NCBI GenBank assembly: GCA_028280575.1
Contig: JANQLN010000050.1
Location: forward strand, 14,136 to 78,135
DNA: 64,000 bases
Direction of reading: 5' to 3'
From: Clostridia bacterium
GTDB lineage: Bacteria; Bacillota; Clostridia; Acetivibrionales; STF1-152
A program made the translations under genes and the position numbers. This document shows, one piece after another, positions 6,520 through 37,372 of the stretch (the first letter of the stretch is position 1; every line of letters begins with the position of its first letter). Under the pieces are notes generated by a model that saw only the letters and a list, made by a program, of their open reading frames with translations, searched no databases and was not told the DNA's origin.

Positions 6520-6525
6520 TTCTAA

Positions 6526-15325: not shown

Positions 15326-15456
15326 CAGGCATAAGTTTTCGCAGAATAAAAAATGGGTAAGTTAAACAATAGTAAAATTGACAAACACAGATTGCGGTGC
15401 TATAGTGATATGAAAATCGGTTTCGTTATAATATTATTCGTTTTGGGAGCTTTTTC

Positions 15457-16920: not shown

Positions 16921-16946
16921 TAAGTTTTAATTGAGCGGAGGTTTGT

Positions 16947-18257: not shown

Positions 18258-18393
18258 AAGATAAGGGATCATTGCAAATTTTAGAAAAAAGCATAATTTT
18301 TTTAAATGAGACACAAAATGCATATTGATAGGAATGGTGCTTATGGAAAACCGCCTTTTGAGTGATATTGGAAGGACAGGCACAAAGGTTATT

Positions 18394-19563: not shown

Positions 19564-19610
19564 ATCTGATAAAATAACGGATAAAAAACATTTTATGAGG
19601 TGAAGGTGTT

Positions 19611-20549
19611 ATGAGTAAATTTAATTTCAAACCGGCAGATTTTTGTCCGGTAAAGGACAGGGAATTGTTGGAAAGGCTGGCGAAAATGACTCCGGAGGAA
19701 ATTGAGCAGCATAAGAACCCGGATGTACGTATTAAAATCCTGGCAAATTACGGGCAGGTAGTGCTCACAGAAAAATTTTTGGGCATTAAGGAATCCTATG
19801 AGCAGAACAAGAAGTTTTCTACTATTTTTGGAAATCCGAATCCCAATTCACATATGCCGCTGGCCGAGCTTATCAATTTATACCGTATTGACTGCAAAAA
19901 CTGTGTTTTTGTTACAATGGATGAGTGGGCCGATGAGGATGGGAATGTGGCACCTGTCACCTATAAGGCAGGATTCACATATTCTTTCATGAAATACTTT
20001 ATCAACAAAATTGACCCGAAGCTGCGTCCGCTGCCGGAAAACATTGTTTATCCTACAACGGAAAACATCAATAGCTTTTCCGATATTATTGATGAAAAAA
20101 CGGACGGGGGAATTGACCTGTTTACTTCCGGTCCCGGTTGGGCGGGGCATATTGCCTTTATTGAACCGACCTTGGAGTATACACAGGTGCAAAGTGTTGA
20201 AGAATATTTGCAGCAGCCTGCGAAAATAGTGACCCTTCATCCTTTGACCATTGCGCAGAATTCCTTACACGGTGTTTTCGGGTGCTCCGGCAACGTTGCA
20301 AATGTTCCGCCCAAAGCAGCTACCATTGGCCCCAGGGATGTTCTGCATGCAAAAAAGAGGATTGAATCCCATGGGATAAGTATAATGGGGACATTTTCTT
20401 CATGGCAGCGCATGACATCCAGGCTGATCACCCACGGGCCGGTCACACCTATGGTTCCCGGTTCCATATACCAGGTGCTGCCATGTATCATCTATATAGA
20501 TCCCAATATTGCCAAGCCTGTTGAGTGCCTTGAGACAACAGGATACTAG
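19611..20549 (+). CDS. Glucosamine-6-phosphate deaminase/isomerase (NagB)-family protein, long form
   Basis: 312 aa. It aligns by eye to E. coli NagB: VTMDEW (MDEY), YSFMKYF, PENI, SGPGWAGHIAFIEP (GNDGHIAFNEP). It has an N-terminal extension of about 40 aa. Confidence 0.7.
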   Translation: MSKFNFKPADFCPVKDRELLERLAKMTPEEIEQHKNPDVRIKILANYGQVVLTEKFLGIKESYEQNKKFSTIFGNPNPNSHMPLAELINLYRIDCKNCVFVTMDEWADEDGNVAPVTYKAGFTYSFMKYFINKIDPKLRPLPENIVYPTTENINSFSDIIDEKTDGGIDLFTSGPGWAGHIAFIEPTLEYTQVQSVEEYLQQPAKIVTLHPLTIAQNSLHGVFGCSGNVANVPPKAATIGPRDVLHAKKRIESHGISIMGTFSSWQRMTSRLITHGPVTPMVPGSIYQVLPCIIYIDPNIAKPVECLETTGY

Positions 20550-20572
20550 TGTAAAAATGAGGAGTTGTGAAT

Positions 20573-21553
20573 ATGAATGAGACTTGTAATAAGGACAGCT
20601 TGATTATACATGACAAAGCCATCAGGCTTGCCGTCCTGGGAATGGTTGAAGGCAATGGGCACCCATACTCCTGGAGTGCTATAATCAACGGATATGACAA
20701 GGAGGAAATGGCAAAGTGCCCCTATCCGGGTATCCCTGAATATCTGGGATTGCAGCCGGAAGAGAACCTGGGGATACCGGGGGCTGTGGTATCCCATATA
20801 TGGACAGATAATCCGGAGGACGCAGAAAATGTGGCAAGGGCTTCTCTCATTGAGAATGTAGTGGGAAAACCGGAAGATGTAATTGGAGAGGTGGATGCCG
20901 TTATTATTCCTACAGACAGGGGATATGAGCATGTGGAAAGGGCAAGGCCATTTGTTGAAGCCGGATTTCCGGTTTTTATCGACAAGCCGATGGTAGATAA
21001 TGCAGAAGATTTGAAAACAATGGTTGAATGGGTCAAAGCCGGAGCAGCTATAATGTCGTCAAGTGCTGCAAGATTCTCAAAAGAATTCATGCCGTACTAC
21101 AAAAATACATATGAGCTTGGAAAAATCAGATTTGCCACAACAACAATGATAAAGAAGTGGGAGACATATGGAATACATGCACTTGAAGGCATATATCCTG
21201 TCTTTGGACCGGGGTTTGCATCGGTAAGGAATACGGGAAGGGAAGACAGCAATATTGTACATCTTAGACACAGCTGTGGAGCAGATATTGTAATAGCCGT
21301 AATAAAAGACATGCTCGGTTCATTCAACCTGATGCAGCTTTGCGGAACAAAGGGAAATGTATTTATCAGAAAACAGGATACGTTTTATTCATTTAAAGAA
21401 CAGATGGCAAGTTATATTGAATATTTGAAAACCGGTAAGAGGCCTTTTCCATTTGATGAAACAGTTGAACTAATGAAGCTTCTTATTGCAGGAATCATAA
21501 GCCGTAATGAAGGCGGAAGGGAAGTCATGCTGGAGGAAATAGAGGTGTACTAG
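20573..21553 (+). CDS. Gfo/Idh/MocA-like oxidoreductase, atypical N-terminus
   Basis: IRLAVLGMVEGNGHPYSWSAIINGY replaces the canonical GxGxxG. I place the start at ATG 20573 (GAGGAG 8 nt upstream). Confidence 0.6.
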   Translation: MNETCNKDSLIIHDKAIRLAVLGMVEGNGHPYSWSAIINGYDKEEMAKCPYPGIPEYLGLQPEENLGIPGAVVSHIWTDNPEDAENVARASLIENVVGKPEDVIGEVDAVIIPTDRGYEHVERARPFVEAGFPVFIDKPMVDNAEDLKTMVEWVKAGAAIMSSSAARFSKEFMPYYKNTYELGKIRFATTTMIKKWETYGIHALEGIYPVFGPGFASVRNTGREDSNIVHLRHSCGADIVIAVIKDMLGSFNLMQLCGTKGNVFIRKQDTFYSFKEQMASYIEYLKTGKRPFPFDETVELMKLLIAGIISRNEGGREVMLEEIEVY

Positions 21554-21570
21554 TATATCAGGAGGGTGTT

Positions 21571-22353
21571 ATGAAAGTATTGGATAGTTTTTCTTTAATG
21601 GGAAAGGTGGCCCTGGTAACAGGCGGGGCAGGTAAATATGGAAAGCAGATAGCAGGTGCTTTGGCGGAGGCGGGAGCGGTAACATACATGGCATCCAGGA
21701 ATCTTGAAGCCCTTGAAAAAGAGGCAAAAGAGCATAGAGAAAAGGGTTATGACGTAACGGCCCTCCAATATGACCAGGCCGAAGAGGAGTCCATAATAGC
21801 ATTAAAAGATGAAATTCTCAGAAGAAGCGGTCGGATTGACGTACTGGTTAACAATGCTGTTGCAAGAATCATAAGAGGATGGGATGAAGAAGGTGAAAAG
21901 TTTGACCGGAGCCTTAAAGTGAATGCTACCGGCTTGTTCCTCATGTGCAGGGCATTTGGGGAAGAAATGTCAAAACAAAACGGCGGGTCTATTATAAATA
22001 TCGGGTCCATATATGGAATGGTTGGATATGATCCCGGTATTTATGAAGGTACGGATATGAAAATGGGAGGTCCTGCATACTGTTTTGAAAAGGGCGGCAT
22101 GATTAATTTTACCAGGCTTATTGGAAGCTATTATGGGAAAAACAATGTAAGATGCAACTGCATAAGCCCGGGTGGGTTCGGGACCCCTTCATTGAATGAA
22201 GTTTTTCATGACAGGTATAGAAAGAAGACCTTCCTTGGAAGGATGGCAAATGAAACCGACTTAAAGGGTATAATAGTATTTCTGGCATCGGATGCGTCAT
22301 TATATGTAACCGGAGCCAACATACCTGTTGACGGGGGCTATACTGCAAAGTAA
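21571..22353 (+). CDS. Short-chain dehydrogenase/reductase (SDR)
   Basis: 260 aa. Motifs KVALVTGGAGKYGKQIA, NNAV, NIGSIYG, YCFEKGG (YxxxK). Confidence 0.85.
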   Translation: MKVLDSFSLMGKVALVTGGAGKYGKQIAGALAEAGAVTYMASRNLEALEKEAKEHREKGYDVTALQYDQAEEESIIALKDEILRRSGRIDVLVNNAVARIIRGWDEEGEKFDRSLKVNATGLFLMCRAFGEEMSKQNGGSIINIGSIYGMVGYDPGIYEGTDMKMGGPAYCFEKGGMINFTRLIGSYYGKNNVRCNCISPGGFGTPSLNEVFHDRYRKKTFLGRMANETDLKGIIVFLASDASLYVTGANIPVDGGYTAK

Positions 22354-22546
22354 AATCGTATTAACCTGTAATAATTTTTAGAAAAATGTCAAGTAATACT
22401 ATAAAAATATCATTTAAAAACATGTGCGGATTATCTATAATTATAATTAAGTTATATGTTACAGATCACTAGTACTCTTAATAGCGCAAGAAAATATGCT
22501 GCAAGACACCTGTAAATTCAGGGTTACCAGGGTAGGAGGAAATTAC

Positions 22547-23476
22547 TTGGAAAAAGTGTTATCGGGAAGAAAAAGAAACATCCTTACACATTTAAGAAAA
22601 GACTACGATTTATATTTAATGGTATTACCTGCCATTGTTGTAGTTTTTATTTTTCATTACATTCCCATTTACGGAATTATAATAGCCTTTCAGGATTATA
22701 ATCCTTTTGACGGGTATGCAGGAAGTGAATTTGTCGGATTGGAGAATTTCATTGATTTTTTCAAAGACCCTTTTTCATTCAGGGTTATTAGAAATACTTT
22801 TTACCTTGGTGCATTAATGATTTTCTTTCGTTTTTGGCCGCCAATTTTGCTTGCGCTTCTGATAAATGAGCTGGCCAACCTTAAATTTAAAAGAACAGTC
22901 CAATCTATTTCCTATCTCCCTCACTTTATATCGACGGTTATTATCGTCGGAATGCTGTTCAGGTTTGTCTCGGTTGATGGCGGATTGGTTAATTCCCTGT
23001 TAAGTTCTCTTGGTATACAAAAAATAAATTTTACAGTATCACCGGAATGGTTCAGGCCGCTTTACATAATCAGCATGATATGGCAAAATGTAGGCTGGGG
23101 ATCGATTTTATATCTAGCTGCAATGGCCGGAATAAGCACAGAGTTATATGAAGCTGCTTATTGTGAAGGCGCAAACAGGTTCCAAAGAGTAAGGTTTATT
23201 ACAATACCCGGAATAACGCCAACGGTTATTATTTTACTGATTTTGAATATGAGAAACATTGTCAACATAGGCCTGGAAAAGGTTTTGCTGATGTATAATC
23301 CGGCAATTTATGAAACAGCAGATGTAATATCTACATATGTTTACAGAAAAGGCATTTTAGGAAGTGATCAAAGCTATGCCTCCGCTATTGGGCTTTTTAA
23401 TTCGGTCATGGCATTAATAGTGGTCCTGGCCGTTAACAAGATGGCCCAGAAATTTAGCGAAACAAGTTTATGGTAA
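22547..23476 (+). CDS. Carbohydrate ABC transporter permease (LplB/YesP type)
   Basis: Multi-TM protein with the EAA-like loop ELYEAAYCEGANRFQRVRFITIPG. I place the start at TTG 22547 (AGGAGG 7 nt upstream); the track ATG 22496 lacks an RBS. Confidence 0.85.
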   Translation: MEKVLSGRKRNILTHLRKDYDLYLMVLPAIVVVFIFHYIPIYGIIIAFQDYNPFDGYAGSEFVGLENFIDFFKDPFSFRVIRNTFYLGALMIFFRFWPPILLALLINELANLKFKRTVQSISYLPHFISTVIIVGMLFRFVSVDGGLVNSLLSSLGIQKINFTVSPEWFRPLYIISMIWQNVGWGSILYLAAMAGISTELYEAAYCEGANRFQRVRFITIPGITPTVIILLILNMRNIVNIGLEKVLLMYNPAIYETADVISTYVYRKGILGSDQSYASAIGLFNSVMALIVVLAVNKMAQKFSETSLW

Positions 23477-23499
23477 AAGGACGAAAGGACGGTGATGAA

Positions 23500-24414
23500 A
23501 TGGACATCATAAATGCACGGAAATCTCTTGGTTCTAAAATTTTTGATTTTATTAATATTACTGTCATGACAATTTTTTCGGTCATTATGTTATATCCGCT
23601 GGTTTATGTTTTAAGTATATCTATCAGCAATTCGGAAGCAGTTACTTTGGGAAAAGTATTTCTCTGGCCGGTTGGGTTTGATTTGACAGCTTATAAAATT
23701 GCACTTGTAAACCCTGATATATGGAATGCATACAAAAATACACTTATATATGTAGTGCTTGGTACTACTATCACAATAATGCTTAATACAATGGCTGCAT
23801 ATCCTTTATCAGTAAAGCAGTTTTATGGAAGAAAATACATAACTGTGTATTTTACCGTAACAATGTTTTTCAGCGGCGGGCTGATTCCCACATATCTTCT
23901 CATAAGCCGTCTGGGAATGATAGATACCATATGGGTTATGGTAATTCCCACATCGGTTACCGCATGGAATATTATTGTGTTCAGAACAAATTTCCAGGGG
24001 ATACCCGAATCATTAATTGAAGCTGCAAAGATGGAAGGTGCAAATTCATTCAGGATATACCTTCAGATAGTTATACCCTTATCAAAGCCTATAATAGCTA
24101 CAATTTCGCTTTTTACCGTTGTCGGAATATGGAATAACTTCTTTCAGGCTTTGATATATTTGAATGATAACAGGATGATACCCTTGCAAAACTATTTGAG
24201 AACATTAATAATAAGTGCGAATTTTGAGTCTCAAAGCATTGAAGAAAATCTGGAAGCAATAACACTTATGGGAAGCGGAAAAAGCATTGTCGGGCTCATG
24301 GAATCGATTAAGATGGCAGCAATACTTGTGAGCCTGGGTCCAATATTACTTGTTTATCCATTTGTACAAAAATATTTTGTTAAAGGAGTACTTGTAGGAG
24401 CAATAAAAGGATAA
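23500..24414 (+). CDS. Carbohydrate ABC transporter permease (LplC/YesQ type)
   Basis: Contains SLIEAAKMEGANSFRIYLQIVIPL. The start is probably ATG 23500; the track start 23470 overlaps the upstream stop. Confidence 0.85.
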   Translation: MDIINARKSLGSKIFDFINITVMTIFSVIMLYPLVYVLSISISNSEAVTLGKVFLWPVGFDLTAYKIALVNPDIWNAYKNTLIYVVLGTTITIMLNTMAAYPLSVKQFYGRKYITVYFTVTMFFSGGLIPTYLLISRLGMIDTIWVMVIPTSVTAWNIIVFRTNFQGIPESLIEAAKMEGANSFRIYLQIVIPLSKPIIATISLFTVVGIWNNFFQALIYLNDNRMIPLQNYLRTLIISANFESQSIEENLEAITLMGSGKSIVGLMESIKMAAILVSLGPILLVYPFVQKYFVKGVLVGAIKG

Positions 24415-24485: not shown

Positions 24486-26165
24486 TTGAAGAAAATCTTG
24501 AAAGGGGTTTCCCTGGTAACGGCACTTTTGATTTTGATTTCTGTGTTATCAGCCTGTGGAGGCCGGAAAGATGAAAAAGACGGTACAACGCCGGAGAAGA
24601 CAACGACACAAGCGGAAGGAAATAAACAGAAACCTGCAGAAGAAACGGAAAAAATGAAGATTGACAAGGTATCTTATGTAATGAGGTCATGGAACCAGGT
24701 TCAGTGGGAAGATTCAAATTTTGACAAAATGGTGAAGGAGAGATTCGGGTTAGAACTTGATTTACAGGTAATTGACTTGAGTTCATACAGGGAAAAGTTC
24801 AGAGTAATGTTCAATACCAACAACCTGCCCGATGTCAGCACCGTATTCGGTATTGACATTTCATCGTTAAACCAGGCAGGTGACAGGGGACTTTTTCTAG
24901 ACTATTATGATTATATGGATGAAATGCCGGTACTCAGGAAAATAATAACAGATAACAAGCCTATCATACCCTATATTACAGCTGCTTCAGGAAGTCTGTA
25001 TTATTCACCTATCTATTATGGTGTTGGCTATAAGCTAGAAAATTATGGGTTTGGCGTAAGAAAGGATTTGCTTGACAAGGCAAGATTTGATTACAGCAAT
25101 TTAGAAAGCATGGATGACCTGTATGCCATGTATAAGGCTCTGAAAGAGCAGGCCCCGGAAAAATATGTCCTTGGAGCGAACCATGAACTAGTTAATATAT
25201 TTCGTGTAGGAGAGCTTATGGGCATAAGTGACGAACCGGCGACCTGGGATCCCAAAAAAGAAGAATGGATTAGAACATATGACCAGCCCGCGATGAAAGA
25301 TTTTCTCACTTTCTGGGCAAATGCTTACGAGGAGGGTATTCTCCACCCGGACTTTTTAACAATGCAAAGCAATGATATGTGGCAAAAGTGTTATAACGGT
25401 GAGCTGACGGCATATATAGAATATTTAAGACACATTGACATATGTAATGATAATGCATCTTCTGATGAAATGGAATGGACATATGTAATGCCTCCTTTAT
25501 ATAAAGGTGAAAAACATGGCATAGTGGCCATGCCCGGTTTTGGATGGGTAAATGCGAAAATTGTCAATTCCAGTACAAAGGTACCCGAAAAAGTTATGAA
25601 GTTTATTGATTGGACATATACCGATGAAGGATACCTTAGAAGCATGTTTGGTGAGGAGGGTGTTGATTATGCATTGCTGGAAAGTGATCCGGTCAAGTGG
25701 ATAGCATTGGATGAATCAAATAAGGATACTCTCCCTGAGGAATATCATGACAAACTGCTTTCGGTTGAGGAAATTGCAAAAAGGAAAGTCGAAGCTCCAT
25801 ACTTTTTATACGGATTCTATTCCAAAAGCAATACTTGGAACAGGTACCAAAAATGGAAAAGGCCATATGTTGATACAGTTTTTGAAGAAGCTCATCAAAG
25901 ATATATACAAGATGGTTGGTACAGCGACCCATCGCCAAATGTTGCACTGTTAGATGATGAACTGGAAGAATTCAATGACTTGAGCACAGCAATTAATGAT
26001 TATGCGATAGAAATGATTTCCAGAATAATTACAGGACAGGTTGACATAGGAAAATGGTCTGAAGTTGTTGATGAAATTTATCAAATGGATTATGACAGGC
26101 TAATGGAATTATATGAAATAAGCTATGAAAACTTTACAAAAGTTGAGCCAAAGTTTAATCCGTAA
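24486..26165 (+). CDS. Extracellular solute-binding lipoprotein (LplA-type, large family-1 SBP)
   Basis: 559 aa. TTG start with AGGAGGAG. Signal peptide plus lipobox LSACGG, then a Thr/Glu/Lys-rich linker. No ATPase gene is present in the locus, which is typical for this transporter type. Confidence 0.85.
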   Translation: MKKILKGVSLVTALLILISVLSACGGRKDEKDGTTPEKTTTQAEGNKQKPAEETEKMKIDKVSYVMRSWNQVQWEDSNFDKMVKERFGLELDLQVIDLSSYREKFRVMFNTNNLPDVSTVFGIDISSLNQAGDRGLFLDYYDYMDEMPVLRKIITDNKPIIPYITAASGSLYYSPIYYGVGYKLENYGFGVRKDLLDKARFDYSNLESMDDLYAMYKALKEQAPEKYVLGANHELVNIFRVGELMGISDEPATWDPKKEEWIRTYDQPAMKDFLTFWANAYEEGILHPDFLTMQSNDMWQKCYNGELTAYIEYLRHIDICNDNASSDEMEWTYVMPPLYKGEKHGIVAMPGFGWVNAKIVNSSTKVPEKVMKFIDWTYTDEGYLRSMFGEEGVDYALLESDPVKWIALDESNKDTLPEEYHDKLLSVEEIAKRKVEAPYFLYGFYSKSNTWNRYQKWKRPYVDTVFEEAHQRYIQDGWYSDPSPNVALLDDELEEFNDLSTAINDYAIEMISRIITGQVDIGKWSEVVDEIYQMDYDRLMELYEISYENFTKVEPKFNP

Positions 26166-26179
26166 TATTTAATACCTTT

Positions 26180-26221
26180 ACAGGTGCAGATCTGACTTTT
26201 TAAAGTCAGGCCTGCACCTGT
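26180..26221 (+). terminator. Strong hairpin after the SBP gene (intra-operon attenuator/stabiliser or terminator)
   Basis: ACAGGTGCAG ... CTGCACCTGT (10 bp, perfect) encloses CTGACTT-tttaa-AGTCAG. It is followed by an A-run rather than a T-run. Confidence 0.45.
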
Positions 26222-26268
26222 GTATTATAAAAAAATTATGTTAAGTTTAAGGAAAGGATTATTTAGCT

Positions 26269-27426
26269 ATGCCTGCTCAAAAAAATGAAAAAAGAAAAAT
26301 AACAGGATCTATATGGAAGACAGAAAAATGCATGTATGAAGAATTTGGTATTGAAGAGCCGGACCCTTTCAATACGGACCTTGATACACTTGCTGAGGTT
26401 TATGCCGAAATGAGGAATGCATTTGCAAGAAAGTATCCGGATTTGTGTCCCGAAGGTCCTGTTCATAAGCCTGTATATTCCATACCCCAGTATGACGGAA
26501 GAACAGTATGCTCAGTTGCCTATGGAGCTCAAAGACCGGTATGGGACGGTCGGACAAGGAGCTATTGGCATGATAGAAGTTATGTTCCATGGGCATGGGT
26601 AGAAACTGTAAAGGACGTTAGCAGTATAAAGGTTCCTGATTGGAGCAGTATTCCCATGGTTCAGGAGAATATTAAAAAATATGAGGAAGTAAGGTCAAAA
26701 ACCAAGTATACACTTGAAGCAAATACGCGTATTCAATGGAGTGAGTTAAGGTTTACACATCCATATACAAAGAAAAGCTATGCCTTCAATACTACTATGA
26801 GTTTTGTAGACCTGGGAGCATTTCTTTTTGGTGACACAAGATTTCTGGAGACATCTTTATCAGATGTTGACCTTACGAAAGCTCTTATGGAAAAATGCTT
26901 TGAAGTAACAGTAAGCTATCGTGATTACGTTAATAAGATGTATGGCTTAAAAGTTAAGGGTATGGCCAGCTTTGGAGGAGATTATTCATTCATGTTCTCA
27001 CCTGACATGTACAGGGAATATGCAATGGCATATGATGCAATGCGTGTTGAAAGATATGGTGATTTGCCATGCAATCTGCACTCCTGCGGGGCGTCTTCAC
27101 ATCTTTATGAAATATGGGGAACATATCCCAACAAGGATAATATTGTATTAATGCAGACAAGAGGAATTGAGGGTAAGTTGAAAGAATTGAGGTCTTCATT
27201 GCCGAATACTTTTCTGCAGATAACAATACACCAGCCCCAGTTTGATTTTGAAGAGGAAAGCGTAGAGAATATTGTTAAGCTTGTATGGCACTATGCAGAA
27301 GAAGCCGGATTCAAGGATCTCCATCTTACAGTTATAGTGTCGAAGACCAACGATGATGTGGAGAGGAATATCAGAGCTTTTTACAAGGTTATAGATGAAG
27401 TAAATGAGCATGCGTTAAGCCAATAA
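26269..27426 (+). CDS. Hypothetical protein, possibly a remote uroporphyrinogen-decarboxylase-fold (URO-D-like) TIM barrel
   Basis: 385 aa and clearly coding (long ORF inside an operon). My only functional hint is NLHSCGASSHLYEIWG, which resembles the HSCG strand of the URO-D-family protein at 41416. The function is not supported beyond that. Confidence 0.35.
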   Translation: MPAQKNEKRKITGSIWKTEKCMYEEFGIEEPDPFNTDLDTLAEVYAEMRNAFARKYPDLCPEGPVHKPVYSIPQYDGRTVCSVAYGAQRPVWDGRTRSYWHDRSYVPWAWVETVKDVSSIKVPDWSSIPMVQENIKKYEEVRSKTKYTLEANTRIQWSELRFTHPYTKKSYAFNTTMSFVDLGAFLFGDTRFLETSLSDVDLTKALMEKCFEVTVSYRDYVNKMYGLKVKGMASFGGDYSFMFSPDMYREYAMAYDAMRVERYGDLPCNLHSCGASSHLYEIWGTYPNKDNIVLMQTRGIEGKLKELRSSLPNTFLQITIHQPQFDFEEESVENIVKLVWHYAEEAGFKDLHLTVIVSKTNDDVERNIRAFYKVIDEVNEHALSQ

Positions 27427-27490
27427 TACGTCAGATAAATAAATTTAAGATTAACTGCACAGATTTTATATATTTATGAGGTGAATTACG

Positions 27491-29056
27491 GTGTATGTAA
27501 AAAACATTAAAAATAGAAAAAAAGCACAAAATATGATTTTAGCAATTGATGATGTTTCACTGCCATTTAAAAAAAACACAGTGCTTTGCATAAGCAAGCC
27601 CGTGGTTCGTAGCGAGCCGGTTCTGAAACCAAGCCCGTTAGGAAGTGGTGCACCCGATGATCTGGCAGCGCACTTTTATGGGACTGTGCTGCACGACGAA
27701 GGGAAATTCCGCATGTGGTACTATGCCGTGCACCGCGGCAAGAATCCTGATTTGCCGCCATATATGATGCAGCAAATTGTTAAATCGCCGGCACACTTAA
27801 AGGGAAGAGAACGCAAAAATTTTCAAGGCCCGCTCTGCTATGCGGAAAGTGATGACGGGATTGTATGGAAAAAACCCTCCCTGGAGCAGGTCCTTTTTAA
27901 GGGAAGTCGTGCCAACAATGCTTTGGCTCTGCCTCACACAGTGGTCAGCGGTGCCACAGTCATAAAGGATATGGACGAGCCGGACCCTGCGCGCCGCTAT
28001 AAGATGGTATACCAATTTTATCCTGCATGCTGCGATCCGGTTATAGAAGAGTATGGGACCGTATCTACCGTGGCTCTGGCGGTATCGCCGGACGGCCTGA
28101 AATGGAATGTAATCGGGATTCCTTTTCCCAACCAGTTTGTAGAACATGCTTCCTTCATTAAGCACCATGATTACTATATAATTCACCATCATAATATGGA
28201 GGGCTTATCGGGATATTCGGAAGGAGGAAGTCCTTCCGGGAGGAAAGGCGTCGCCCGCAAGACGGCAGATTTTTTTCACTGGCCTGACCTGGCGGCAGAA
28301 TCTTTTGCTCTTGTTGAACCTGAAGACCGCAGTTTGAGAGGAATTAACGGTTTATATGACCAGGTGCATCTCGGGGTAGGAGCAGCAAGCTTTGGCAATG
28401 TTTGTGTAGGCTTGTACGGATTGTGGCATAATGGGGATTTTCTTAATGGGTTTGACCAGATTTCGGGTGACCTGGGACTGCTTGTATCTAATGACGGGAT
28501 ACATTTCAGGGAACCTGTAAAAGGTTACCGGTTCATTACGCGTGAAAATTCCCCGGTTACTCCCGCTCCCGGGTACAATTTCAACACTATCTTATGCCAG
28601 GCAAACGGTATTCTGAATGTGGGCGATGAAACCCTCATCTATCACGGACGCTGGCGCAATACCGGACACAAGCGTGAAGAGCTGCAAACAAAATATTATG
28701 GGGAAGTAGCCCTTGCAACTATCCCGCGTGACCGTTGGGGTGCAATGATATTGAATCCCGATTCAAAAGAAGGGATGGTATGTTCAGCGCCTGTTGAACT
28801 TCCGCCTGCAGGTTGTGAATTATACCTGAATGCCGACGTTGTTTCCGGTCTTACCGTAAAATTGCTGGATAAAAATTTCCGCTCCATCAACGGTTTCAGT
28901 AATGGACGGGTCAACAGCGGTGACGGACTGGACTGCCGGGTAGAATGGTCCGGGCATGAACTGTCAGAGCTGGGAGGAAAGACAGTACGTGTGCAGATAA
29001 CGCTTGATCGAGTGAATGATACAAGTCCGTGTTTGTATGCCATGTACGTGATTTAA
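27491..29056 (+). CDS. Beta-propeller protein, glycoside-hydrolase/phosphorylase-like (GH43/32/130-type SxDGxxW blades), family unassigned
   Basis: 521 aa. GTG start with GAGGTG. Repeated blade motifs YAESDDGIVWKKP, LAVSPDGLKWNV, LLVSNDGIHFREP, plus KFRMWYYA. No signal peptide. Confidence 0.5.
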   Translation: MYVKNIKNRKKAQNMILAIDDVSLPFKKNTVLCISKPVVRSEPVLKPSPLGSGAPDDLAAHFYGTVLHDEGKFRMWYYAVHRGKNPDLPPYMMQQIVKSPAHLKGRERKNFQGPLCYAESDDGIVWKKPSLEQVLFKGSRANNALALPHTVVSGATVIKDMDEPDPARRYKMVYQFYPACCDPVIEEYGTVSTVALAVSPDGLKWNVIGIPFPNQFVEHASFIKHHDYYIIHHHNMEGLSGYSEGGSPSGRKGVARKTADFFHWPDLAAESFALVEPEDRSLRGINGLYDQVHLGVGAASFGNVCVGLYGLWHNGDFLNGFDQISGDLGLLVSNDGIHFREPVKGYRFITRENSPVTPAPGYNFNTILCQANGILNVGDETLIYHGRWRNTGHKREELQTKYYGEVALATIPRDRWGAMILNPDSKEGMVCSAPVELPPAGCELYLNADVVSGLTVKLLDKNFRSINGFSNGRVNSGDGLDCRVEWSGHELSELGGKTVRVQITLDRVNDTSPCLYAMYVI

Positions 29057-29190
29057 AGTCCTCTTAGGAGGCTCCTGGATCGTTGTAAACTTTAATCAAA
29101 CAATTTTTTTAACTGTATGGAAAATTCAGAAATTTTGTAAAACTGCAGATGATTAATATGCTTTTAATTTATGGTATGGGAGAAGACAAT

Positions 29191-30204
29191 ATGAAAAACA
29201 TACTTATTGATGTAAAAGTAAATCAGGAAAAGATGAAAGAACTTCAGGAGATTGAAGGAATAAACATAGAAGTAGTTGAATACAGGGAAAAAAGCAGAAT
29301 TATTCCAAAAGACATACTTAAAGACAAAAACATACTATTTTGTATGTTTCCACCTCGCAATTTTGCCGATCTTGATACCATAGAATTTATCCAGGTAAAC
29401 TCTGCCGGATACGGTCAACTATTAGGACTGGGTCTGGCTGAGAAGGGGATACGTGCCTGTAATGCCCGGGGTGTATCCAACATACCAATTGCGGAGTGGA
29501 GTATGGCTATGATGATAAACCTTGCAAGGGATATGAAAAGTATGATGAGGAACCAGGAGGCAAAAATATGGGACAGATCTGCCAGGTTCCAGAGTGAAAT
29601 CCGGGGTTTAAAATTGGGAATATGGGGATACGGAGCAATAGGGCGTGAAACGGCCAGGCTTGCCAAGGCTTTTGGAATGAAGGTTTATTCTATGGACATG
29701 GAGCTGCCGGGCAGTATCAGGCATGATATATATAGAGTTGAAGGCACAGGTGATCCTGAAGGAAAACTGCAGGATAAAGCATTTGTTACCGGAGAAGAAA
29801 ACAAATTCCTTAAGGATTTGGATTTTCTGGTTATTTCCATGCCGCTTACAAATAATACAAAAGGGTTAATAGGTAAGGAAGAATTAAAAGCACTGCCCAG
29901 TACGGCATATGTACTAAATCCGGCACGAGGACCGATAATACAAGAAGAAGCACTTCTGACAGCATTAAAAGAAGGCTGGATAGCAGGAGCTGCACTGGAC
30001 ACCCATTATTACTATCCTTTGCCTGCCGACCACCCTCTATGGGAGCTTCCCAATGTTGTTATAACTCCTCATATTTCTGGTTCCTCACTTAGCAGCCATT
30101 TTATGGAGAGATCCTGGGACATCTTTGTACAGAATGTAAAAAGGTTATTGTCTTCACAGCCTTTGCTGAATGAGCTAAGTCAAGCTCAGCTGGAAGGAGA
30201 ATAA
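29191..30204 (+). CDS. D-isomer-specific 2-hydroxyacid dehydrogenase family protein
   Basis: Motifs LGIWGYGAIGRETARLAKAFGMKV, NPARGPII, AALDTH, TPHISG. I place the start at ATG 29191 (GGGAGAAG upstream). Confidence 0.8.
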   Translation: MKNILIDVKVNQEKMKELQEIEGINIEVVEYREKSRIIPKDILKDKNILFCMFPPRNFADLDTIEFIQVNSAGYGQLLGLGLAEKGIRACNARGVSNIPIAEWSMAMMINLARDMKSMMRNQEAKIWDRSARFQSEIRGLKLGIWGYGAIGRETARLAKAFGMKVYSMDMELPGSIRHDIYRVEGTGDPEGKLQDKAFVTGEENKFLKDLDFLVISMPLTNNTKGLIGKEELKALPSTAYVLNPARGPIIQEEALLTALKEGWIAGAALDTHYYYPLPADHPLWELPNVVITPHISGSSLSSHFMERSWDIFVQNVKRLLSSQPLLNELSQAQLEGE

Positions 30205-30227
30205 AATTTTAATCAGGAGGGATTCAG

Positions 30228-31439
30228 ATGAAAATCACCGATGTAAAAACAGTTTTACTGACAGGGCCGTGTACAGATGATCCTTTTTTATCGGAGGCAA
30301 GAAAAAGGCGCAGCGCAGCCTTTATTGAAATACACACCGACACTGAGTTAATAGGTATAGGAGAAACCTATGCAGGATATTTCTGCCCCGAAATGGTGCC
30401 GGAGATAGTTGAGTTTTTTAAACCTATACTGGTTGGAATGAATGTAGACAACATACATAAATTGTGGAACAGGATGTACCAGTGCGGAAATTTCTGGTGC
30501 AGGGTAGGGCTTGGACTTATTGTACTAAACGGTATAGAAGCCGCACTATGGGATTTGAAGGGGAAAATATGCAATCTGCCCGTCTATGAGCTTTTAGGCG
30601 GAAAAAAGCATGACAGCCTTTTTTGCTATGCCACCGGAGGACCCAGTAATTACCCTAAGGAAAAGCTGGCAGCAAAGATTGAATTTTATTTATCTCTTGG
30701 CTTTAAAGCCTTTAAGCTGGGTGCAGGGTGCCATTCGGACAAAGGAAAGTATATACCTTGCGTTCCCAATGAGGCAGCAGAATTTGAGGCAGAAAAGCTT
30801 GAGTTTGTGAGAAACACATTCGGCCCGGAGGTCATAGTGGCATTAGACGGCCATATGGGCAACAGGTATGAAAATACATGGGATTTGCCGACGGCAAAGG
30901 CGGTTATGAAAGCCCTGGAACCCTTTGATATATTCTTTTTTGAAGAACCCCTGCACTATACGGACCCCTGGGGCTATGGGGAACTTTGCAAAAGCACGTT
31001 CATACCCATAGCAGGAGGGGAGTGCCTTACAGGGACATATGAGTGGCGTGTATTTGCAGAAAAGGACAGCTTTGATATAGGCCAGCCGGATGCCTCCTTT
31101 ACAGGAGGACTTTTGGAATTTATTAAGGTGGCTGCCTTGCTGGAAAGCAAGGGTAAAAAGATTGCCACACACGCCTGGGGTGCGGCTGCTTCCCTGATGC
31201 AGAACATCCACTGCGGTTTTGCATGTGCAAACACACTGGTGCTTGAGATTCCGCCTGCTTATGGTCCGCTTCACAGTGAGATAATGGGGGATTCTTTTAT
31301 AATGAAGGACGGGAGGATATTTCCGCCTCAAAAACCAGGGCTTGGCATAGAGCTAACCGAACGGGTAAAGGAGAAGTATCCTTTTGTCAGAGGAAGCGGA
31401 GAATTCAACAGCGTACCGGGAAAGATACTGACGGACTGA
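30228..31439 (+). CDS. Enolase-superfamily (mandelate racemase/muconate lactonizing) sugar-acid dehydratase
   Basis: 403 aa. Motifs MKITDVKT, GIGETY, AALWDLKGK, FKAFKLG, LDGHMG, FFEEP, IAGGE, QPD, HAWG. Confidence 0.85.
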   Translation: MKITDVKTVLLTGPCTDDPFLSEARKRRSAAFIEIHTDTELIGIGETYAGYFCPEMVPEIVEFFKPILVGMNVDNIHKLWNRMYQCGNFWCRVGLGLIVLNGIEAALWDLKGKICNLPVYELLGGKKHDSLFCYATGGPSNYPKEKLAAKIEFYLSLGFKAFKLGAGCHSDKGKYIPCVPNEAAEFEAEKLEFVRNTFGPEVIVALDGHMGNRYENTWDLPTAKAVMKALEPFDIFFFEEPLHYTDPWGYGELCKSTFIPIAGGECLTGTYEWRVFAEKDSFDIGQPDASFTGGLLEFIKVAALLESKGKKIATHAWGAAASLMQNIHCGFACANTLVLEIPPAYGPLHSEIMGDSFIMKDGRIFPPQKPGLGIELTERVKEKYPFVRGSGEFNSVPGKILTD

Positions 31440-31667: not shown

Positions 31668-33170
31668 ATGATTCCAATTAAAGTACTATTTATTGATGAT
31701 GAAGTAATAATAAAGAGAATAATCATGGAGAAGGTTAATTGGGATAAATACAATATGGAGATTACTAAAATTGCGAATAATGCATGTGAAGCACTTGAAT
31801 ATCTGGATAAATTTCATGTTGATTTGATTATTACCGATATTAAAATGCCATTGATAGACGGAAATGAATTTATTAAAAAGGCCTTATCTTTGAAGAAGAA
31901 TTTTAAATTCTTAGTGCTTAGTGCGTATACTGATTTTGACATTGTCAGAAAATCATTTAAGCTGGGCGTATATGACTATATGCAAAAGTCTGATATAAAT
32001 ACACCGGTAATGGATAATATATTGGTTAAATTAAGAAATGAGATAACAAATGAGAATACTAAAAATGCAGATGGCATGGATGAAGCTTTAAGCGAGGGAT
32101 TTACAGATGGCTTTGCGGACACCTCGCAAATATCGGTTTCTAAAAGATATACTGTTCTGCTTATTAAATATTTAGACTTCCACAGTAAAACCGGCAAGCA
32201 GGTAATAAAACTGGTTAAAGAGGCGAATGAAGTTCAAAAACTGTTTTTTACAGATATTTTTAAGGATAGGTTCACTGTTATAATAGAGCACATATCAAAA
32301 TCATATAAAAATATCAATCATGAAAGAGAACGCATAACTGAAATAATAAAGAAATCAATTAACCGGGAAAAATTAATTAGTTATTATATAGGAGTAAGCA
32401 CGACAGGGTTTGGTTCTGAAATTGACACCTTGAAATTTGAAGCGGAAGAGGTTATCGAAAGTCAGTATTACCATATTCAAAGTAAAAAGGTATTCTATTA
32501 TGAACCCAAAGCAAACAAGCAGGAACTCTTAGAGGACGATTGGAAGCTGAGGCTTAAAAGAGAAGTTGAAATGCTCAATATAGATAAGGCATCCGATATA
32601 CTCAAAGAACTGATGACACGTATTCATGTTATAAAACCGGATAAAACAAGATGCCAGGATTTTATTTATAATATATACGTATTTTATGTAAATTATTTAT
32701 ATAATAACAATATTATTGCAAAAGTAATAGAATTGGATTATAACAGGATTCATAATATTATTAAACAATTCGATAAGTTCGACAAGCTGGAAGAATGGAT
32801 AACAAATAATCTTGAGATTATACATGAAGGCTATATGCTTAAGTACAGAAGCAATTTGGCAGAGATTTTGAAGGTTTATATTAAATTTAATTTAAATGAA
32901 GACCTATCGGTTAATAAAATTGCGGAAAAGTATAATGTCAATAGTTCTTATATAAGCTATTTGTTCAAAAAGCAAGAAGGGACATCTTTAAAAAAATATA
33001 TTAATGAAGTCAAAATTAATAAAGCAAAGCATTATCTTGTTAATACGAATATAAAGGTTAAGGAAATCTGCAATTTACTTGGATACAATAATCCGGAACA
33101 CTTTTCTCGTGTATTTAAAGAGAGATTCGGGGAATCACCCAATTTTTACCGGGGTAAAAGTACTATCTAA
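31668..33170 (+). CDS. Response regulator with AraC-type HTH output (YesN-like)
   Basis: 500 aa. Receiver domain KVLFIDDE...DLIITDIKMPLIDG. C-terminal AraC HTH (SVNKIAEKYNVNSSYISYLFKK...GYNNPEHFSRVFKERFGESP). Confidence 0.9.
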   Translation: MIPIKVLFIDDEVIIKRIIMEKVNWDKYNMEITKIANNACEALEYLDKFHVDLIITDIKMPLIDGNEFIKKALSLKKNFKFLVLSAYTDFDIVRKSFKLGVYDYMQKSDINTPVMDNILVKLRNEITNENTKNADGMDEALSEGFTDGFADTSQISVSKRYTVLLIKYLDFHSKTGKQVIKLVKEANEVQKLFFTDIFKDRFTVIIEHISKSYKNINHERERITEIIKKSINREKLISYYIGVSTTGFGSEIDTLKFEAEEVIESQYYHIQSKKVFYYEPKANKQELLEDDWKLRLKREVEMLNIDKASDILKELMTRIHVIKPDKTRCQDFIYNIYVFYVNYLYNNNIIAKVIELDYNRIHNIIKQFDKFDKLEEWITNNLEIIHEGYMLKYRSNLAEILKVYIKFNLNEDLSVNKIAEKYNVNSSYISYLFKKQEGTSLKKYINEVKINKAKHYLVNTNIKVKEICNLLGYNNPEHFSRVFKERFGESPNFYRGKSTI

Positions 33171-33217
33171 AGTATTTGCATTCTTATAAATTTTAAAAAG
33201 TTTGGTGGAAAGAAATA

Positions 33218-35017
33218 ATGAAAAGGGAAGGGAAAATATATATTAAAAATTTTTTGAATTCAATAACAATACCTTTTGTTATTCTTACCCTATTGATACT
33301 GGTATCGGTAGTATATATCAGTTATCAAAATAGTGATAATTTTATTGAACAGCAGCTTACAGAAGAATATATAAATATAATTGACGGAAAAAGGGATATG
33401 TTTACCAATATGGCAAATAGGATTATATCCCTTATTAATAATGCTTTGGATAATGAATCTACTCTTGATCTGATAAGCGGAAAATTGACAGGATATGACA
33501 GGCAAAAAAGTATGGAGGATGTCAGGAATTTATTATTATATGACAAAGGATTTGTAGATGAATATGATTTCTTTTATTATGGACTGAATGGCATATATTT
33601 TTATAAGCCGGATATTATTTTTAAAGATATATCTTCATTTAAAGAGACAAAATGGTTTAAAGAGGCCTCAGGCAGTGAAACACCATTAAACTGGTTTGGT
33701 TTAAGCAAAAGTGAAATTGTTGACGGCGGTTATGAATTTATTGTATCTCTTAAAGTGGATATATATGATAATTTCAGAGGAAATTTGCAGGGAATAGCAT
33801 TTTTTTCAATTGATGACAGTGTGCTCGACAGTATTATGAAAAGTGGAAAAGGAAAGGTTTATATTATAAATAACAGGGGTGAAATCATTTATGATATTGA
33901 AAAAAAATTGCAAAATAGTAATGCTTCTGTTCTGGGGTTAGATTATGAGCTGGATATACCGGCTAAATCAAAGTACCGTGTAAAAAAAATAGATAAAAGG
34001 TATACGCAGGATAAAAGTAAAAATTTAATTGCAATAATAAGTGCCCAGGATAAATTTGGTTTATCCATAATTCATATAAGAGAGCATTCATCAATTATTG
34101 AAAAATTTAAATCACTGCAATTCATGTTTTATGCTGTTCTTTCTATAGTGATAGCATTTATAGCATATTATATATTTGTGTATGTTTGGATTATTAATAA
34201 ACCAATAAAAAATTTGTACGGAAAAATTCTAAGCTTGAATAATAGTCAAAGTTCAAATATATTAATTAAAAAAGAAAATATCATAACAACAGGGATTAAA
34301 AAAATTGATATAGAGTTTAATAGAATTATTTCTGAAAATAAAAAGAATTTAAAAAGAATCAATGAATATGAAAGAACAAAGCAGTTAATGGAAATAAAAA
34401 AATTACAGGCTGAAATTGACCCCCACTTTTTATACAATGTGCTTGGACATATTAAATTTGTTGCAATGCTCAACGATCCCGTTCAAATTATTAAGATAAT
34501 TGACTCATTGTTTATTATTCTAAAAAGCAAAAAGGCACAGGTGAAACATATTATACCTGTCGGGGAAGAGATTAATGTATTAAAAAAATATATTGATTTA
34601 ATTCAGTTAATATATGGAGACAACATTGAATTTGAGTTTGATATTGATTCAATTGTGTACGGATATGATATGCCGGCATTTATACTCCAGCCAATTGTGG
34701 AAAACTGCATAAATCACGGAATTAATCCAAGTGTCAAGGGAGGAAAAATCAGCATATTGGGAAGGATTGCTAATTCCTGCGTTATTTTTGAAATAGTTGA
34801 TAATGGAATTGGAATACAGGAAAAAGCAATAACAAAAATAGTTCAATACCAGAGGGATTTGAACGGTAAAAATGAACACATGGGTATTATGAATATTGAT
34901 AAGAAGATTAAATTAAGCTGCGGAAAAGACTATGGAATCAGTATATCGTCAGAAGACGGTAAGGGTACAAGGGTTACAGTCACCTTGAGCTTGAACCCTT
35001 CAAGCAATGTCATGTGA
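33218..35017 (+). CDS. Sensor histidine kinase (YesM-like, His_kinase + HATPase_c)
   Basis: 599 aa. Two TM segments flank an extracellular sensor domain. It also has the H-box EIDPHFLYNVL and N/G boxes (ENCINHG, DNGIGI). Confidence 0.9.
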   Translation: MKREGKIYIKNFLNSITIPFVILTLLILVSVVYISYQNSDNFIEQQLTEEYINIIDGKRDMFTNMANRIISLINNALDNESTLDLISGKLTGYDRQKSMEDVRNLLLYDKGFVDEYDFFYYGLNGIYFYKPDIIFKDISSFKETKWFKEASGSETPLNWFGLSKSEIVDGGYEFIVSLKVDIYDNFRGNLQGIAFFSIDDSVLDSIMKSGKGKVYIINNRGEIIYDIEKKLQNSNASVLGLDYELDIPAKSKYRVKKIDKRYTQDKSKNLIAIISAQDKFGLSIIHIREHSSIIEKFKSLQFMFYAVLSIVIAFIAYYIFVYVWIINKPIKNLYGKILSLNNSQSSNILIKKENIITTGIKKIDIEFNRIISENKKNLKRINEYERTKQLMEIKKLQAEIDPHFLYNVLGHIKFVAMLNDPVQIIKIIDSLFIILKSKKAQVKHIIPVGEEINVLKKYIDLIQLIYGDNIEFEFDIDSIVYGYDMPAFILQPIVENCINHGINPSVKGGKISILGRIANSCVIFEIVDNGIGIQEKAITKIVQYQRDLNGKNEHMGIMNIDKKIKLSCGKDYGISISSEDGKGTRVTVTLSLNPSSNVM

Positions 35018-35094: not shown

Positions 35095-36468
35095 TTGAAC
35101 ACGTTTGTGTTTTATGATGATTTTATGCTGTGGAAATATGAAGGGATAAGGAGGAGAGTATTCAGGCCGGTACATATACCGGAAGCAACATTTTGGAAAC
35201 CATCCATAACAGGCGGAACAGTTTTGTGGTGCCCGGAAGTTAACAAATACAGGATGTGGTACAGCAAAATTCCGGATATAACAAAAGACTGGGGAAGATT
35301 TTCTGAGTTTGCGGAATCGGAAGACGGACTTGACTGGCATGCTCCTGGTTGCGGTGAAGAAAAGTCGAGGCTTGCCCCGGCAGTTGAAGTTATGAGGGAT
35401 GAGCATGCAAATAACCACCGGGAAAGGTATAAATGCGTGTACATAGATTATAAGGGTGAATATAATTCAAAAGGCTACATTGCTGTAAGCCCCGACGGCA
35501 TACACTGGACCGGGGACAAAAGGTATAAATTCTGTGAGCACGCAAGTGATACAAAAAACAACCTTTTTTATAACCCGGTAACGGATGAGTACCAGGTTAT
35601 TTTAAGAGCGAATCATGGAGACAGGCGTATTTGCTGTGTGCGTTCAAAAGATTTGATTAACTGGACCGGACCTGAATTATTGATGTCCCCTGATCCATTT
35701 GATGAGGCAGTCACAGAGTATTACGGCCTGGTGGTTTTTCCTATGGAAGGGTATTTTCTTGGATATTTATGGGTGTATTATACGGACATGAATGACATTT
35801 CAACCTATAAAATGGCAGGAAAGGTAGATACTTTCCTGGTTTACAGCTATGATGGGCTTCACTGGAACAGGGTGTCAAAAGCCCCTCTTGTGGAAAGGGC
35901 AACTCCTCCTGAATATGGCAGCACTAATATATATATGCATTCCATTGTTCAAACTACGGATAAGGGAGGATGGATTCTTGGTGCAGGGGGAAACAGGATA
36001 GACCATGCCTGCGGCTTTACACCCGTTTATCCGGATTCAAGGATTCCCAAGCTGGCATCCGGTGGGAAAAGGTATGTAAACCTGTTCTACAAAATACGCC
36101 GTGAAGGATTTGTAGGTATGGAATCATTCGGTTATACGGCAAGCATGGTTTTCAAGGCTGTTGATATTGTTGGTGATGATTTGTTTTTCAACATTTGCGC
36201 ACCCTGCGGGTGGGTAAAATTTCAGATTATTGAAAAAATAGGCAAAACAATAAAGGGTTTTACGTTTGAGGATTCAATACCATTTACAGGAGATGAAACC
36301 AGGTACAAACCTGTATGGAAAGAGCATGATTTAAATGAGCTTAAGGGAAGAAGGGTTATGATTGAGCTGAAAATGTATATGGCAATTGTTTTTTCTATGT
36401 CGGGCCACATAAGGCCCCATTTTGGATTAAAGCCTCAGAAATCGCTGGGTGAAGTGGCCGTAATTTAA
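35095..36468 (+). CDS. Beta-propeller protein, paralogous in type to 27491-29056; family unassigned
   Basis: 457 aa. TTG start with GGAGGAG. Motifs RMWYSK, AESEDGLDWHAPG, IAVSPDGIHWTGDK, VRSKDLINWTGPE, LVYSYDGLHWNRVS. No signal peptide. Confidence 0.5.
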   Translation: MNTFVFYDDFMLWKYEGIRRRVFRPVHIPEATFWKPSITGGTVLWCPEVNKYRMWYSKIPDITKDWGRFSEFAESEDGLDWHAPGCGEEKSRLAPAVEVMRDEHANNHRERYKCVYIDYKGEYNSKGYIAVSPDGIHWTGDKRYKFCEHASDTKNNLFYNPVTDEYQVILRANHGDRRICCVRSKDLINWTGPELLMSPDPFDEAVTEYYGLVVFPMEGYFLGYLWVYYTDMNDISTYKMAGKVDTFLVYSYDGLHWNRVSKAPLVERATPPEYGSTNIYMHSIVQTTDKGGWILGAGGNRIDHACGFTPVYPDSRIPKLASGGKRYVNLFYKIRREGFVGMESFGYTASMVFKAVDIVGDDLFFNICAPCGWVKFQIIEKIGKTIKGFTFEDSIPFTGDETRYKPVWKEHDLNELKGRRVMIELKMYMAIVFSMSGHIRPHFGLKPQKSLGEVAVI

Positions 36469-36492
36469 GTGAAACTAAAAGGGGAGATTGGA

Positions 36493-37311: not shown

Positions 37312-37372
37312 AGCAGAAAAATGATACGGCAGCATAAATTTTATAAAGCAGAATTTAAGAGGTGTGTATGTT

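Follow-up and report, generated by a model that had tools for sequence, protein, structure and literature searches.

Five-bladed β-propellers with a 7-position repeat, the s-Asp-box, occur in glycoside hydrolase (GH) families GH32 and GH43, whereas the Asp-box of sialidases has 8 positions, S-x-D-x-G-x-T-W (PMC2716378). In the related family GH130, Asp142 of BT3780 is the candidate for catalytic acid, and hydrolases of this family carry Glu227 and Glu268 in place of basic phosphate-binding residues (PMC4599007). New GH families continue to be defined: GH159, furanosidases of clan GH-F, was founded from unclassified sequences (PMC9278983). Here, we describe a propeller protein of 521 residues encoded in a 64,000-nucleotide stretch of a Clostridia bacterium genome (contig JANQLN010000050.1; the window, in what follows). 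It shares its predicted fold and distant homology with these enzymes and belongs to a large family that appears uncurated in Pfam, NCBIfam and the Protein Data Bank (PDB). With about even confidence, we read it as a cytoplasmic, probably exo-acting glycoside hydrolase, with the mechanism and pathway proposed below.

Gene, motifs and predicted fold

The gene and the parts of its product are as follows.

27491..29056, plus strand: open reading frame (ORF) of the propeller protein, 521 residues, clade A of the superfamily (ORF translation, model, Foldseek)
27479..27484, plus strand: GAGGTG, Shine-Dalgarno-like, with a 6-nt spacer to the GTG start
27530..27610, plus strand: N-terminal segment with the 'LAIDD' strand, residues 14–40 (alignments, profiles)
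27614..28753, plus strand: five-bladed β-propeller, residues ~42–421 (DSSP of the model, blade register)
27848..27868, plus strand: s-Asp-box 1, SDDGIVW, residues 120–126, blade A, strands 3–4 (model, motif scan)
28085..28105, plus strand: s-Asp-box 2, SPDGLKW, residues 199–205, blade B (model, motif scan)
28262..28282, plus strand: degenerate fourth copy of the s-Asp-box, TADFFHW, residues 258–264, blade C (motif scan, alignment)
28487..28507, plus strand: s-Asp-box 3, SNDGIHF, residues 333–339, blade D (model, motif scan)
28763..29053, plus strand: C-terminal β-sandwich, residues ~425–521, as in GH32 and GH43 β-xylosidases (model, Foldseek)

The ORF translates in full and starts with GTG behind the GAGGTG sequence, while no Shine-Dalgarno sequence precedes the internal ATG at 27533; the boundaries given by an earlier interpretation of the letters alone (the sequence-only reading) therefore hold. 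Most homologs start at the position of Met15. The three peptides quoted in that reading as blade signatures (YAESDDGIVWKKP, LAVSPDGLKWNV and LLVSNDGIHFREP) are all found in the translation, where residues 120, 199 and 333 each start a match to the pattern S.DG..[WF]. Among 200,000 shuffles of the protein, none contained three or more such motifs and 9 contained two. Because the motif has 7 positions, it is an s-Asp-box and not the sialidase Asp-box, and the model places each copy between strands 3 and 4 of its blade. The N-terminus (MYVKNIKNRKKAQN) is rich in Lys and lacks hydrophobic character, so the protein has no signal peptide, as had been supposed, and is predicted to be cytoplasmic.

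The AlphaFold model, built from 31 sequences (predicted local distance difference test score (pLDDT) 82.8; predicted template modelling score (pTM) 0.85), is all-β: five four-stranded blades (~42–421, with approximate bounds 42–131, 128–210, 207–275, 276–345 and 341–421) are followed by a β-sandwich (~425–521). The modelled fold is thus a five-bladed propeller with a C-terminal β-sandwich, and the propeller type is the one that the sequence-only reading had recognized from GH43, GH32 and GH130. In a Foldseek search of the PDB, GH130 phosphorylases rank first (9gph, 7fip and 5b0p; E ~1e-10 to 1e-11, template modelling (TM) score on the target 0.60–0.66), led by 9gph with an E-value of 3e-11, a TM of 0.65 and 15% identity. 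They are followed by two-domain GH32 enzymes and GH43 β-xylosidases, and then by GH117 (TM 0.45–0.51) and GH137. The GH32 enzyme 6num, as well as 3ugf and 3kf5, aligns over both domains. Identity to these nearest folds (GH130, GH32, GH43 and GH117) is 13–15%.

Sequence libraries yield no confident match to a characterized family. Pfam (2025 copy) returns nothing at E<=10, and the sole NCBIfam (June 2026) match is the β-1,2-mannobiose phosphorylase model of GH130, NF052550, which scores 17.2 bits vs a cutoff of 450 over residues 40–129. A sequence search of the PDB (2026) retrieved nothing for the protein alone or for a profile of its close homologs, and ten divergent relatives have no Pfam family either. 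This agrees with the sequence-only reading, in which the sequence could not be assigned to GH43, GH32 or GH130. A more diverse profile, which includes members 27–35% identical, does reach PDB chains of GH130 (7fip, 5.6e-10; 9fj8, 6.6e-8), GH117 (6e-7 to 1e-5, with 5ta7 at 6e-7) and GH32 (7vco, 4.6e-4). Since these matches span one blade only, they point to clan-level homology and not to family membership; profile and model together place the family, by prediction, in the structural clan of GH130, GH32, GH43 and GH117.

Within this clan, GH130 (7fip, 9gph, 5a7v) is the best match in both fold and profile. It shares the five-bladed propeller with s-Asp-box-type blades, and the acid at its candidate catalytic Asp position appears to be kept. 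Compared with GH130, the protein carries two additional parts, an N-terminal segment in which one Asp is invariant and a C-terminal β-sandwich. It has no match to PF04041, which together with the NF052550 score leaves it outside GH130 as defined by curated models. GH32 enzymes (β-fructofuranosidases and levanases, such as 6num and BT1760) share the propeller, the sandwich and the s-Asp-box repeats, but the protein lacks a PF00251 match and the WMNDPNG, RDP and EC motifs, and where GH32 has its nucleophile, a linear alignment via 1uyp and clade B shows His61; membership of GH32 was rejected. GH43 β-xylosidases have the propeller and a sandwich domain, while GH159 has the propeller only, and neither gives a significant sequence or profile match. 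The spacing of D15/D128/E187 in the GH43 enzyme XynB3 and of D19/D142/E190 in GH159 (PMC9278983) resembles that of D20/D160/E218 here, although this similarity in spacing is only suggestive of equivalent triads.

Three further assignments were rejected. For GH117, there is no match at the family level, as the profile matches span single blades and the TM score on the target is 0.45–0.51. GH159 proteins are single-domain and absent from both the profile matches and the top 50 fold matches. Sialidases (BNR, GH33) have six blades and not five, and the protein has the 7-position motif and no PF13088 match.

The family, its conserved residues and a second propeller

Over 1,100 homologs came up in a word-indexed search. 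The top 120 are full-length and 58–68% identical to the protein. None of these 120 has a Pfam domain on the propeller region, and wherever the source gives a name it is 'hypothetical', except for two esterase-fused members. The exact 521-residue sequence is present in the protein collection without a name. An exhaustive search yielded 2,173 cluster representatives (50% identity clusters) at E<=1e-3. In a scan of species genomes, relatives were found at 301 matched sites, often in multiple copies per genome, in Planctomycetota, Verrucomicrobiota, Lentisphaerota, Paenibacillus, Hydrogenedentota, Chloroflexota, Gemmatimonadota and Acidobacteriota; family members also occur in Clostridia. Full-text literature searches turned up no description of this propeller family. 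The sequence-only reading had put the protein forward as a candidate founding member of a new CAZy-type family. Its novelty stands as far as Pfam, NCBIfam and the PDB are concerned, but with 2,173 clusters at 50% identity the protein is better described as one member of a large uncurated family.

The spread across phyla can be set against a housekeeping gene of the same window, the arginyl-tRNA synthetase (ArgRS; 38530–40290). Its nearest other ArgRS in the database is 70% identical, and its named matches (Eubacteriales, Oscillospiraceae, Ruminococcus) are 63–66% identical, which assigns the window to a Clostridia lineage without cultured members. By these identities, the propeller protein appears about as conserved between phyla (58–68%) as ArgRS is within its order (<=70%), from which we infer horizontal spread under strong constraint: the gene looks horizontally transferred and strongly constrained.

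Homologs are fused to a range of domains: S9-like and alpha/beta-hydrolase esterases, a GDSL esterase, the carbohydrate-binding module (CBM) CBM4_9, Laminin_G with GH115_C, PKD and an HpiC1-like domain (in P0122, P0008, P0073, P0177, P0187, P0192, P0261 and P0124). The esterase and CBM fusions support a carbohydrate-active role. A simple hydrophobicity and Tat-motif test called signal-like N-termini in 8 of 112 close homologs and in 16 of 30 divergent full-length representatives; the protein itself and 104 of the 112 close homologs come out as cytoplasmic. Family members with a signal peptide and those of the cytoplasm have one and the same conserved core.

Outside the s-Asp-boxes, the residues kept at ~30% identity are D20, D56, N142/N143, D/E160, R169, K171, E218, R251, H293, E341, R413 and D414. 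Conserved acidic residues, for which the sequence-only reading had proposed a check, are thus indicated by the alignments at D20, D56, D/E160, E218, E341 and D414. D20 is invariant in clade A, as is its counterpart D8 in clade B, and in the profile alignment GH130 chains have no counterpart of the N-terminal 'AIDD' segment that carries it. An acidic residue, D or E, occupies position 160 in 35 of the 37 diverse members. The 'VEDPR' motif of GH130 7fip, whose Asp is Asp142 in BT3780, aligns with the conserved 'VxRD' of clade B, which would correspond to D160 of the protein (a transitive equivalence via hhalign). At the Arg of the 7fip 'HRR' motif, the only alignable phosphate-site position, clade B has R, and clade A has H or Q, which is neither the basic residue of the phosphorylases nor the Glu227/Glu268 of the hydrolases.

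Clustering of the ORFs of the window and of the first 83 loci revealed a distant paralog within the window itself.

35095..36468, plus strand: clade B paralog, 457 residues, propeller and sandwich, three s-Asp-boxes (ORF clustering, BLASTP, hhalign, model)

The paralog lies 6 kb downstream of the clade A gene, and its s-Asp-boxes read SEDGLDW, SPDGIHW and SYDGLHW. It has no Pfam match at E<=0.001. BLASTP aligns the two proteins over 168 residues only (29% identity), while hhalign of clade A vs clade B gives a probability of 100 and an E-value of 5.6e-60 over 438 aligned columns. Its model (pLDDT 92.8) has the same architecture and fold neighbours, which together with the profile alignment points to membership of the same superfamily. 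Some clade B relatives lie just over the Pfam GH32N cutoff (26.5 and 24.9 bits vs 22.1), and the clade B profile aligns contiguously with ~190 residues of GH130 chains. Clade B genes are found within 8 kb of clade A genes (<=8 kb) in ~17 of ~80 loci. In two Paenibacillus loci (L052, 9583–10359; L069, 9516–10292), ORFs of 258 residues that group with the propeller family lie between the full-length copies and the 2-hydroxyacid dehydrogenase (2-Hacid_dh) gene, right in front of the latter; they may be shortened paralogs or else a distinct protein made of a small domain.

Genes around the propellers

The clade A gene sits in a run of co-directional genes.

13967..22353, plus strand: class-III aminotransferase, FGGY kinase, ceramidase-like amidase, NagA-like, NagB-like, GFO/IDH/MocA and SDR genes
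22496..24414, plus strand: two ATP-binding cassette (ABC) permease genes (BPD_transp_1; Pfam)
24486..26165, plus strand: extracellular solute-binding protein (SBP_bac_1, 559 residues; Pfam)
26269..27426, plus strand: URO-D-like protein by a weak Pfam match, repeatedly found as a partner of the family (Pfam, neighbourhood)
29149..30204, plus strand: D-2-hydroxyacid dehydrogenase family protein, the conserved partner seen most often (Pfam, neighbourhood)
30228..31439, plus strand: enolase-superfamily (MR_MLE) acid-sugar dehydratase-like protein, conserved partner (Pfam, neighbourhood)
31668..35017, plus strand: AraC-type response regulator and histidine kinase, a YesN/YesM-like pair (annotation scan)
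36469..37311, plus strand: HpcH/HpaI-family 2-keto-3-deoxy-acid aldolase (annotation scan)
37364..38320, plus strand: aldo/keto reductase (annotation scan)

As the sequence-only reading had stated, the gene follows an ABC importer (permeases and solute-binding protein on the plus strand), with one URO-D-like gene in between. No intergenic terminator-like site was found on the plus strand from 22496 to 31439, and the genes at 13967–22353 probably belong to the same unit. The paralog comes after the YesN/YesM-like pair and before the aldolase and aldo/keto reductase genes. For the MR_MLE protein, the best models are arabinonate and galactonate dehydratase, at scores below their cutoffs, and it resembles 5olc and 5xd7.

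To what extent this arrangement recurs can be read from 117 co-directional neighbours, classified by Pfam family, from ~77 loci outside the window. The counts of the commonest families are 8 for BNR_2, 6 each for 2-Hacid_dh, MR_MLE and URO-D, 3 each for DUF386 and GFO/IDH/MocA, and 2 each for GH172 and DHDPS. Among 33 larger or added neighbour proteins, SASA acetylesterases are the commonest (4 members); GH42 is also found among the family neighbours. The 25 most frequent neighbour families include no phosphosugar-handling (mutase/isomerase) family. Propeller, 2-Hacid_dh and MR_MLE genes are grouped in the window, Paenibacillus, Victivallis, Chloroflexota, Opitutales and the locus of the closest homolog. 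In the last of these, the order is MR_MLE, clade A propeller, URO-D, clade-B-like propeller, 2-Hacid_dh, zinc-dependent alcohol dehydrogenase, URO-D and GH172; in Paenibacillus, it is solute-binding protein, two or three propellers, 2-Hacid_dh, MR_MLE and DUF386.

URO-D-like (MtaA/CmuA-fold) genes stand beside propellers in unrelated taxa (window 26269–27426 and 41416–42480, both on the plus strand; L004, 6737–7876; L084, 6926–7942 and 12115–13374), and no corrinoid protein is found among the annotated window genes that were scanned. Their possible roles in a sugar locus are those of a demethylase or a decarboxylase. Upstream on the plus strand, at 16947–20549 and 13967–15325, the window encodes a neutral-ceramidase-like amidase, a NagA-like deacetylase (221.9 bits vs a cutoff of 225.65), a protein with a weak likeness to NagB and a class-III aminotransferase. 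The ceramidase-like gene and the aminotransferase gene both have homologs at other family loci (L009, L017, L030 and L046; L022 and L072). These genes hint at an N-acylated amino sugar in the substrate.

Elsewhere in the window, a ZMP/ZTP riboswitch (RF01750, 46046–46130, plus strand; 55.9 bits vs a gathering score of 39) is the sole Rfam family, and it directly precedes a serine hydroxymethyltransferase-like gene (46214–47734). The window also holds a glycosyltransferase cluster with a UDP-GlcNAc 2-epimerase and a UDP-sugar dehydrogenase (2215–7695), an 887-residue fusion of dihydroorotate/dihydropyrimidine-dehydrogenase-like and pyridine-nucleotide-disulphide oxidoreductase domains (50515–53178), a right-handed β-helix protein (56740–58377, minus strand) and an N-acylglucosamine 2-epimerase (60266–61441, minus strand).

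Proposed reaction, alternatives and meaning

The sequence-only reading had proposed a sugar-cleaving enzyme, either a hydrolase or a phosphorylase. The fold, the conserved carboxylates and the esterase and CBM fusions support such an enzyme, and we infer that it is catalytic and favour a hydrolase. In the pathway that we propose, an oligosaccharide would be imported by the adjacent ABC system and trimmed in the cytoplasm by the propeller protein and its paralog (35095–36468). Cleavage would be a single-displacement (inverting) reaction in the central pocket of the propeller. The conserved acid at position 160 would be the counterpart of the candidate catalytic Asp of GH130, and water would be activated by another conserved carboxylate, with E218 as the best candidate and D20, D56 and E341 as alternatives. 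The basic cluster formed by R169, K171, R251, H293 and R413 would probably hold an anionic group of the substrate, which it seems to fit better than phosphate. The released sugar would be a sugar acid or be oxidized to one. Its further conversion would fall to the 2-hydroxyacid dehydrogenase together with the enolase-superfamily dehydratase, joined in the window by the HpcH aldolase and the aldo-keto reductase.

We favour a hydrolase because signal-like N-termini occur in the family (8 of 112 close homologs, 16 of 30 divergent representatives), because the conserved core is the same in exported and cytoplasmic members, because clade A has H or Q at the 7fip 'HRR' Arg position, and because phosphosugar-handling families are missing from the 25 most frequent neighbour families. 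Several points weigh against this reading. The sequence similarity of clade A to GH families is confined to generic blade features, and hhalign of the family profile vs the verified sequence of 2exh (XynB3, GH43) gives a probability of 2.6% and no usable alignment. The clade B profile matches 6n1a, a propeller enzyme that acts as a GalNAc deacetylase and not as a glycosidase, as well as it matches GH130 (1.8e-8). The suggested roles of D20, D160 and E218 and their placement in the pocket derive from alignment, and phosphate might be what the conserved basic residues bind. Partner counts are modest (6–10 of ~77 loci each), and BNR and SASA genes are abundant in genomes of the Planctomycetota–Verrucomicrobiota–Chlamydiota (PVC) group in general.

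A GH130-like glycoside phosphorylase, in which inorganic phosphate held by basic residues would attack the anomeric carbon and release a sugar 1-phosphate from the imported oligosaccharide, is in our view rather unlikely. GH130 phosphorylases are the best matches in both fold and sequence profile, the GH130 catalytic Asp position is conserved, as are R169, K171, R251, H293 and R413, and both the protein and most of its close homologs (104/112) are cytoplasmic, where phosphorylases work. However, known phosphorylases are intracellular, and the same basic residues are also kept in members with Sec/Tat signals or CBM/PKD fusions. Moreover, clade A has H or Q at the position that matches the 7fip 'HRR' Arg, and neither a phosphomutase nor a sugar-phosphate enzyme is recurrent in the neighbourhood; the conserved partners use acids that are not phosphorylated.

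It is also possible, if distinctly unlikely, that the family has already been placed in a recent CAZy GH family for which there is no Pfam or NCBIfam model and no solved structure, so that its function is known elsewhere. New GH families are founded regularly, GH159 being an example (PMC9278983), and our family comparison covers Pfam, NCBIfam and the PDB, not CAZy/dbCAN. Against this, the 2025 and 2026 versions of these three libraries hold no entry for the family, the source names among the matches are all 'hypothetical protein' (the two esterase-fused members aside), and the full-text searches found no description.

An improbable alternative is a propeller that modifies carbohydrates without glycosidase activity, for example as a metal-dependent de-N-acetylase like the GalNAc deacetylase of F. 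plautii. This enzyme (6n1a/6n1b) is five-bladed with the same SxDGxxW blades, is the top PDB profile match of clade B with a score comparable to that of GH130, has a fold match to clade B at an E-value of 6e-9 and matches the clade A profile at 2.9e-4. Among the conserved residues, His, Asp and Glu could serve as metal ligands, and the window operon contains the NagA-like, NagB-like, ceramidase-like and aminotransferase genes. However, the 6n1a score is the sum of weak single-blade matches (individual E 0.17–0.64) limited to generic blade features, whereas GH130 aligns contiguously; 6n1a also lies outside the top 50 fold matches of the clade A protein and carries a CBM and not the sandwich seen here. 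In addition, some family members carry a separate esterase or deacetylase domain as a fusion or have one encoded beside them, suggesting that the propeller does something else. Finally, a lyase or intramolecular transglycosylase forming an anhydro- or unsaturated sugar acid for the neighbouring oxidoreductases is very improbable: GFO/IDH/MocA and DUF386 proteins, whose characterized relatives process anhydro- and ring-closed sialic acids (PMC7315737, PMC8141875), recur nearby and the basic cluster fits an acidic substrate, but they do so in few loci only (3 each), and no matched clan family (GH130, GH32, GH43, GH117) is annotated as a lyase.

As for the substrate of the favoured hydrolase, the esterase fusions and neighbours suggest an O-acetylated glycan as its source. 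Two narrower proposals were rejected. Action on a monosaccharide as a sugar lactonase does not fit the exported members and the CBM, PKD and esterase fusions, which point to a polymer. A specificity for red-algal anhydro-galactose, as raised by the MR_MLE likeness to 5olc/5xd7, does not fit the hosts, most of which come from soil, freshwater or gut. A further possibility is a sialic-acid-type substrate, in view of the BNR_2, SASA, DUF386 and DHDPS neighbours, although these have low counts and a high background in PVC genomes.

We also consider a bolder possibility, tentatively and at well below even confidence: the two propeller clades, the URO-D-like protein, the 2-hydroxyacid dehydrogenase and the dehydratase (with DUF386 in Paenibacillus) may make up an undescribed, horizontally mobile pathway that handles an unusual sugar derived from an O-acetylated glycan, with the propeller protein founding a new GH family of new specificity. 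The anomerase DUF386 (YhcH) provides a 2-keto sugar acid in its open form (PMC8141875), hence a speculative version in which the propeller would be a ketosidase or ulosonidase; the ring of its 2-keto-acid product would be opened, after which reduction at C2, dehydration and cleavage by the aldolase would follow. Cultured Paenibacillus species such as P. cymbidii, P. hemerocallicola and P. ginsengarvi carry the operon, which makes it directly testable.

If the hydrolase reading is true, a new glycoside hydrolase family would be added within a well-studied structural clan, and a function could be given to thousands of 'hypothetical proteins' in major polysaccharide-degrading phyla and groups (Planctomycetota, Verrucomicrobiota, Lentisphaerota, Paenibacillus and Clostridia). 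The conservation across phyla, together with the fixed set of sugar-acid enzymes, suggests one specific and widespread substrate and an undescribed route for its breakdown.

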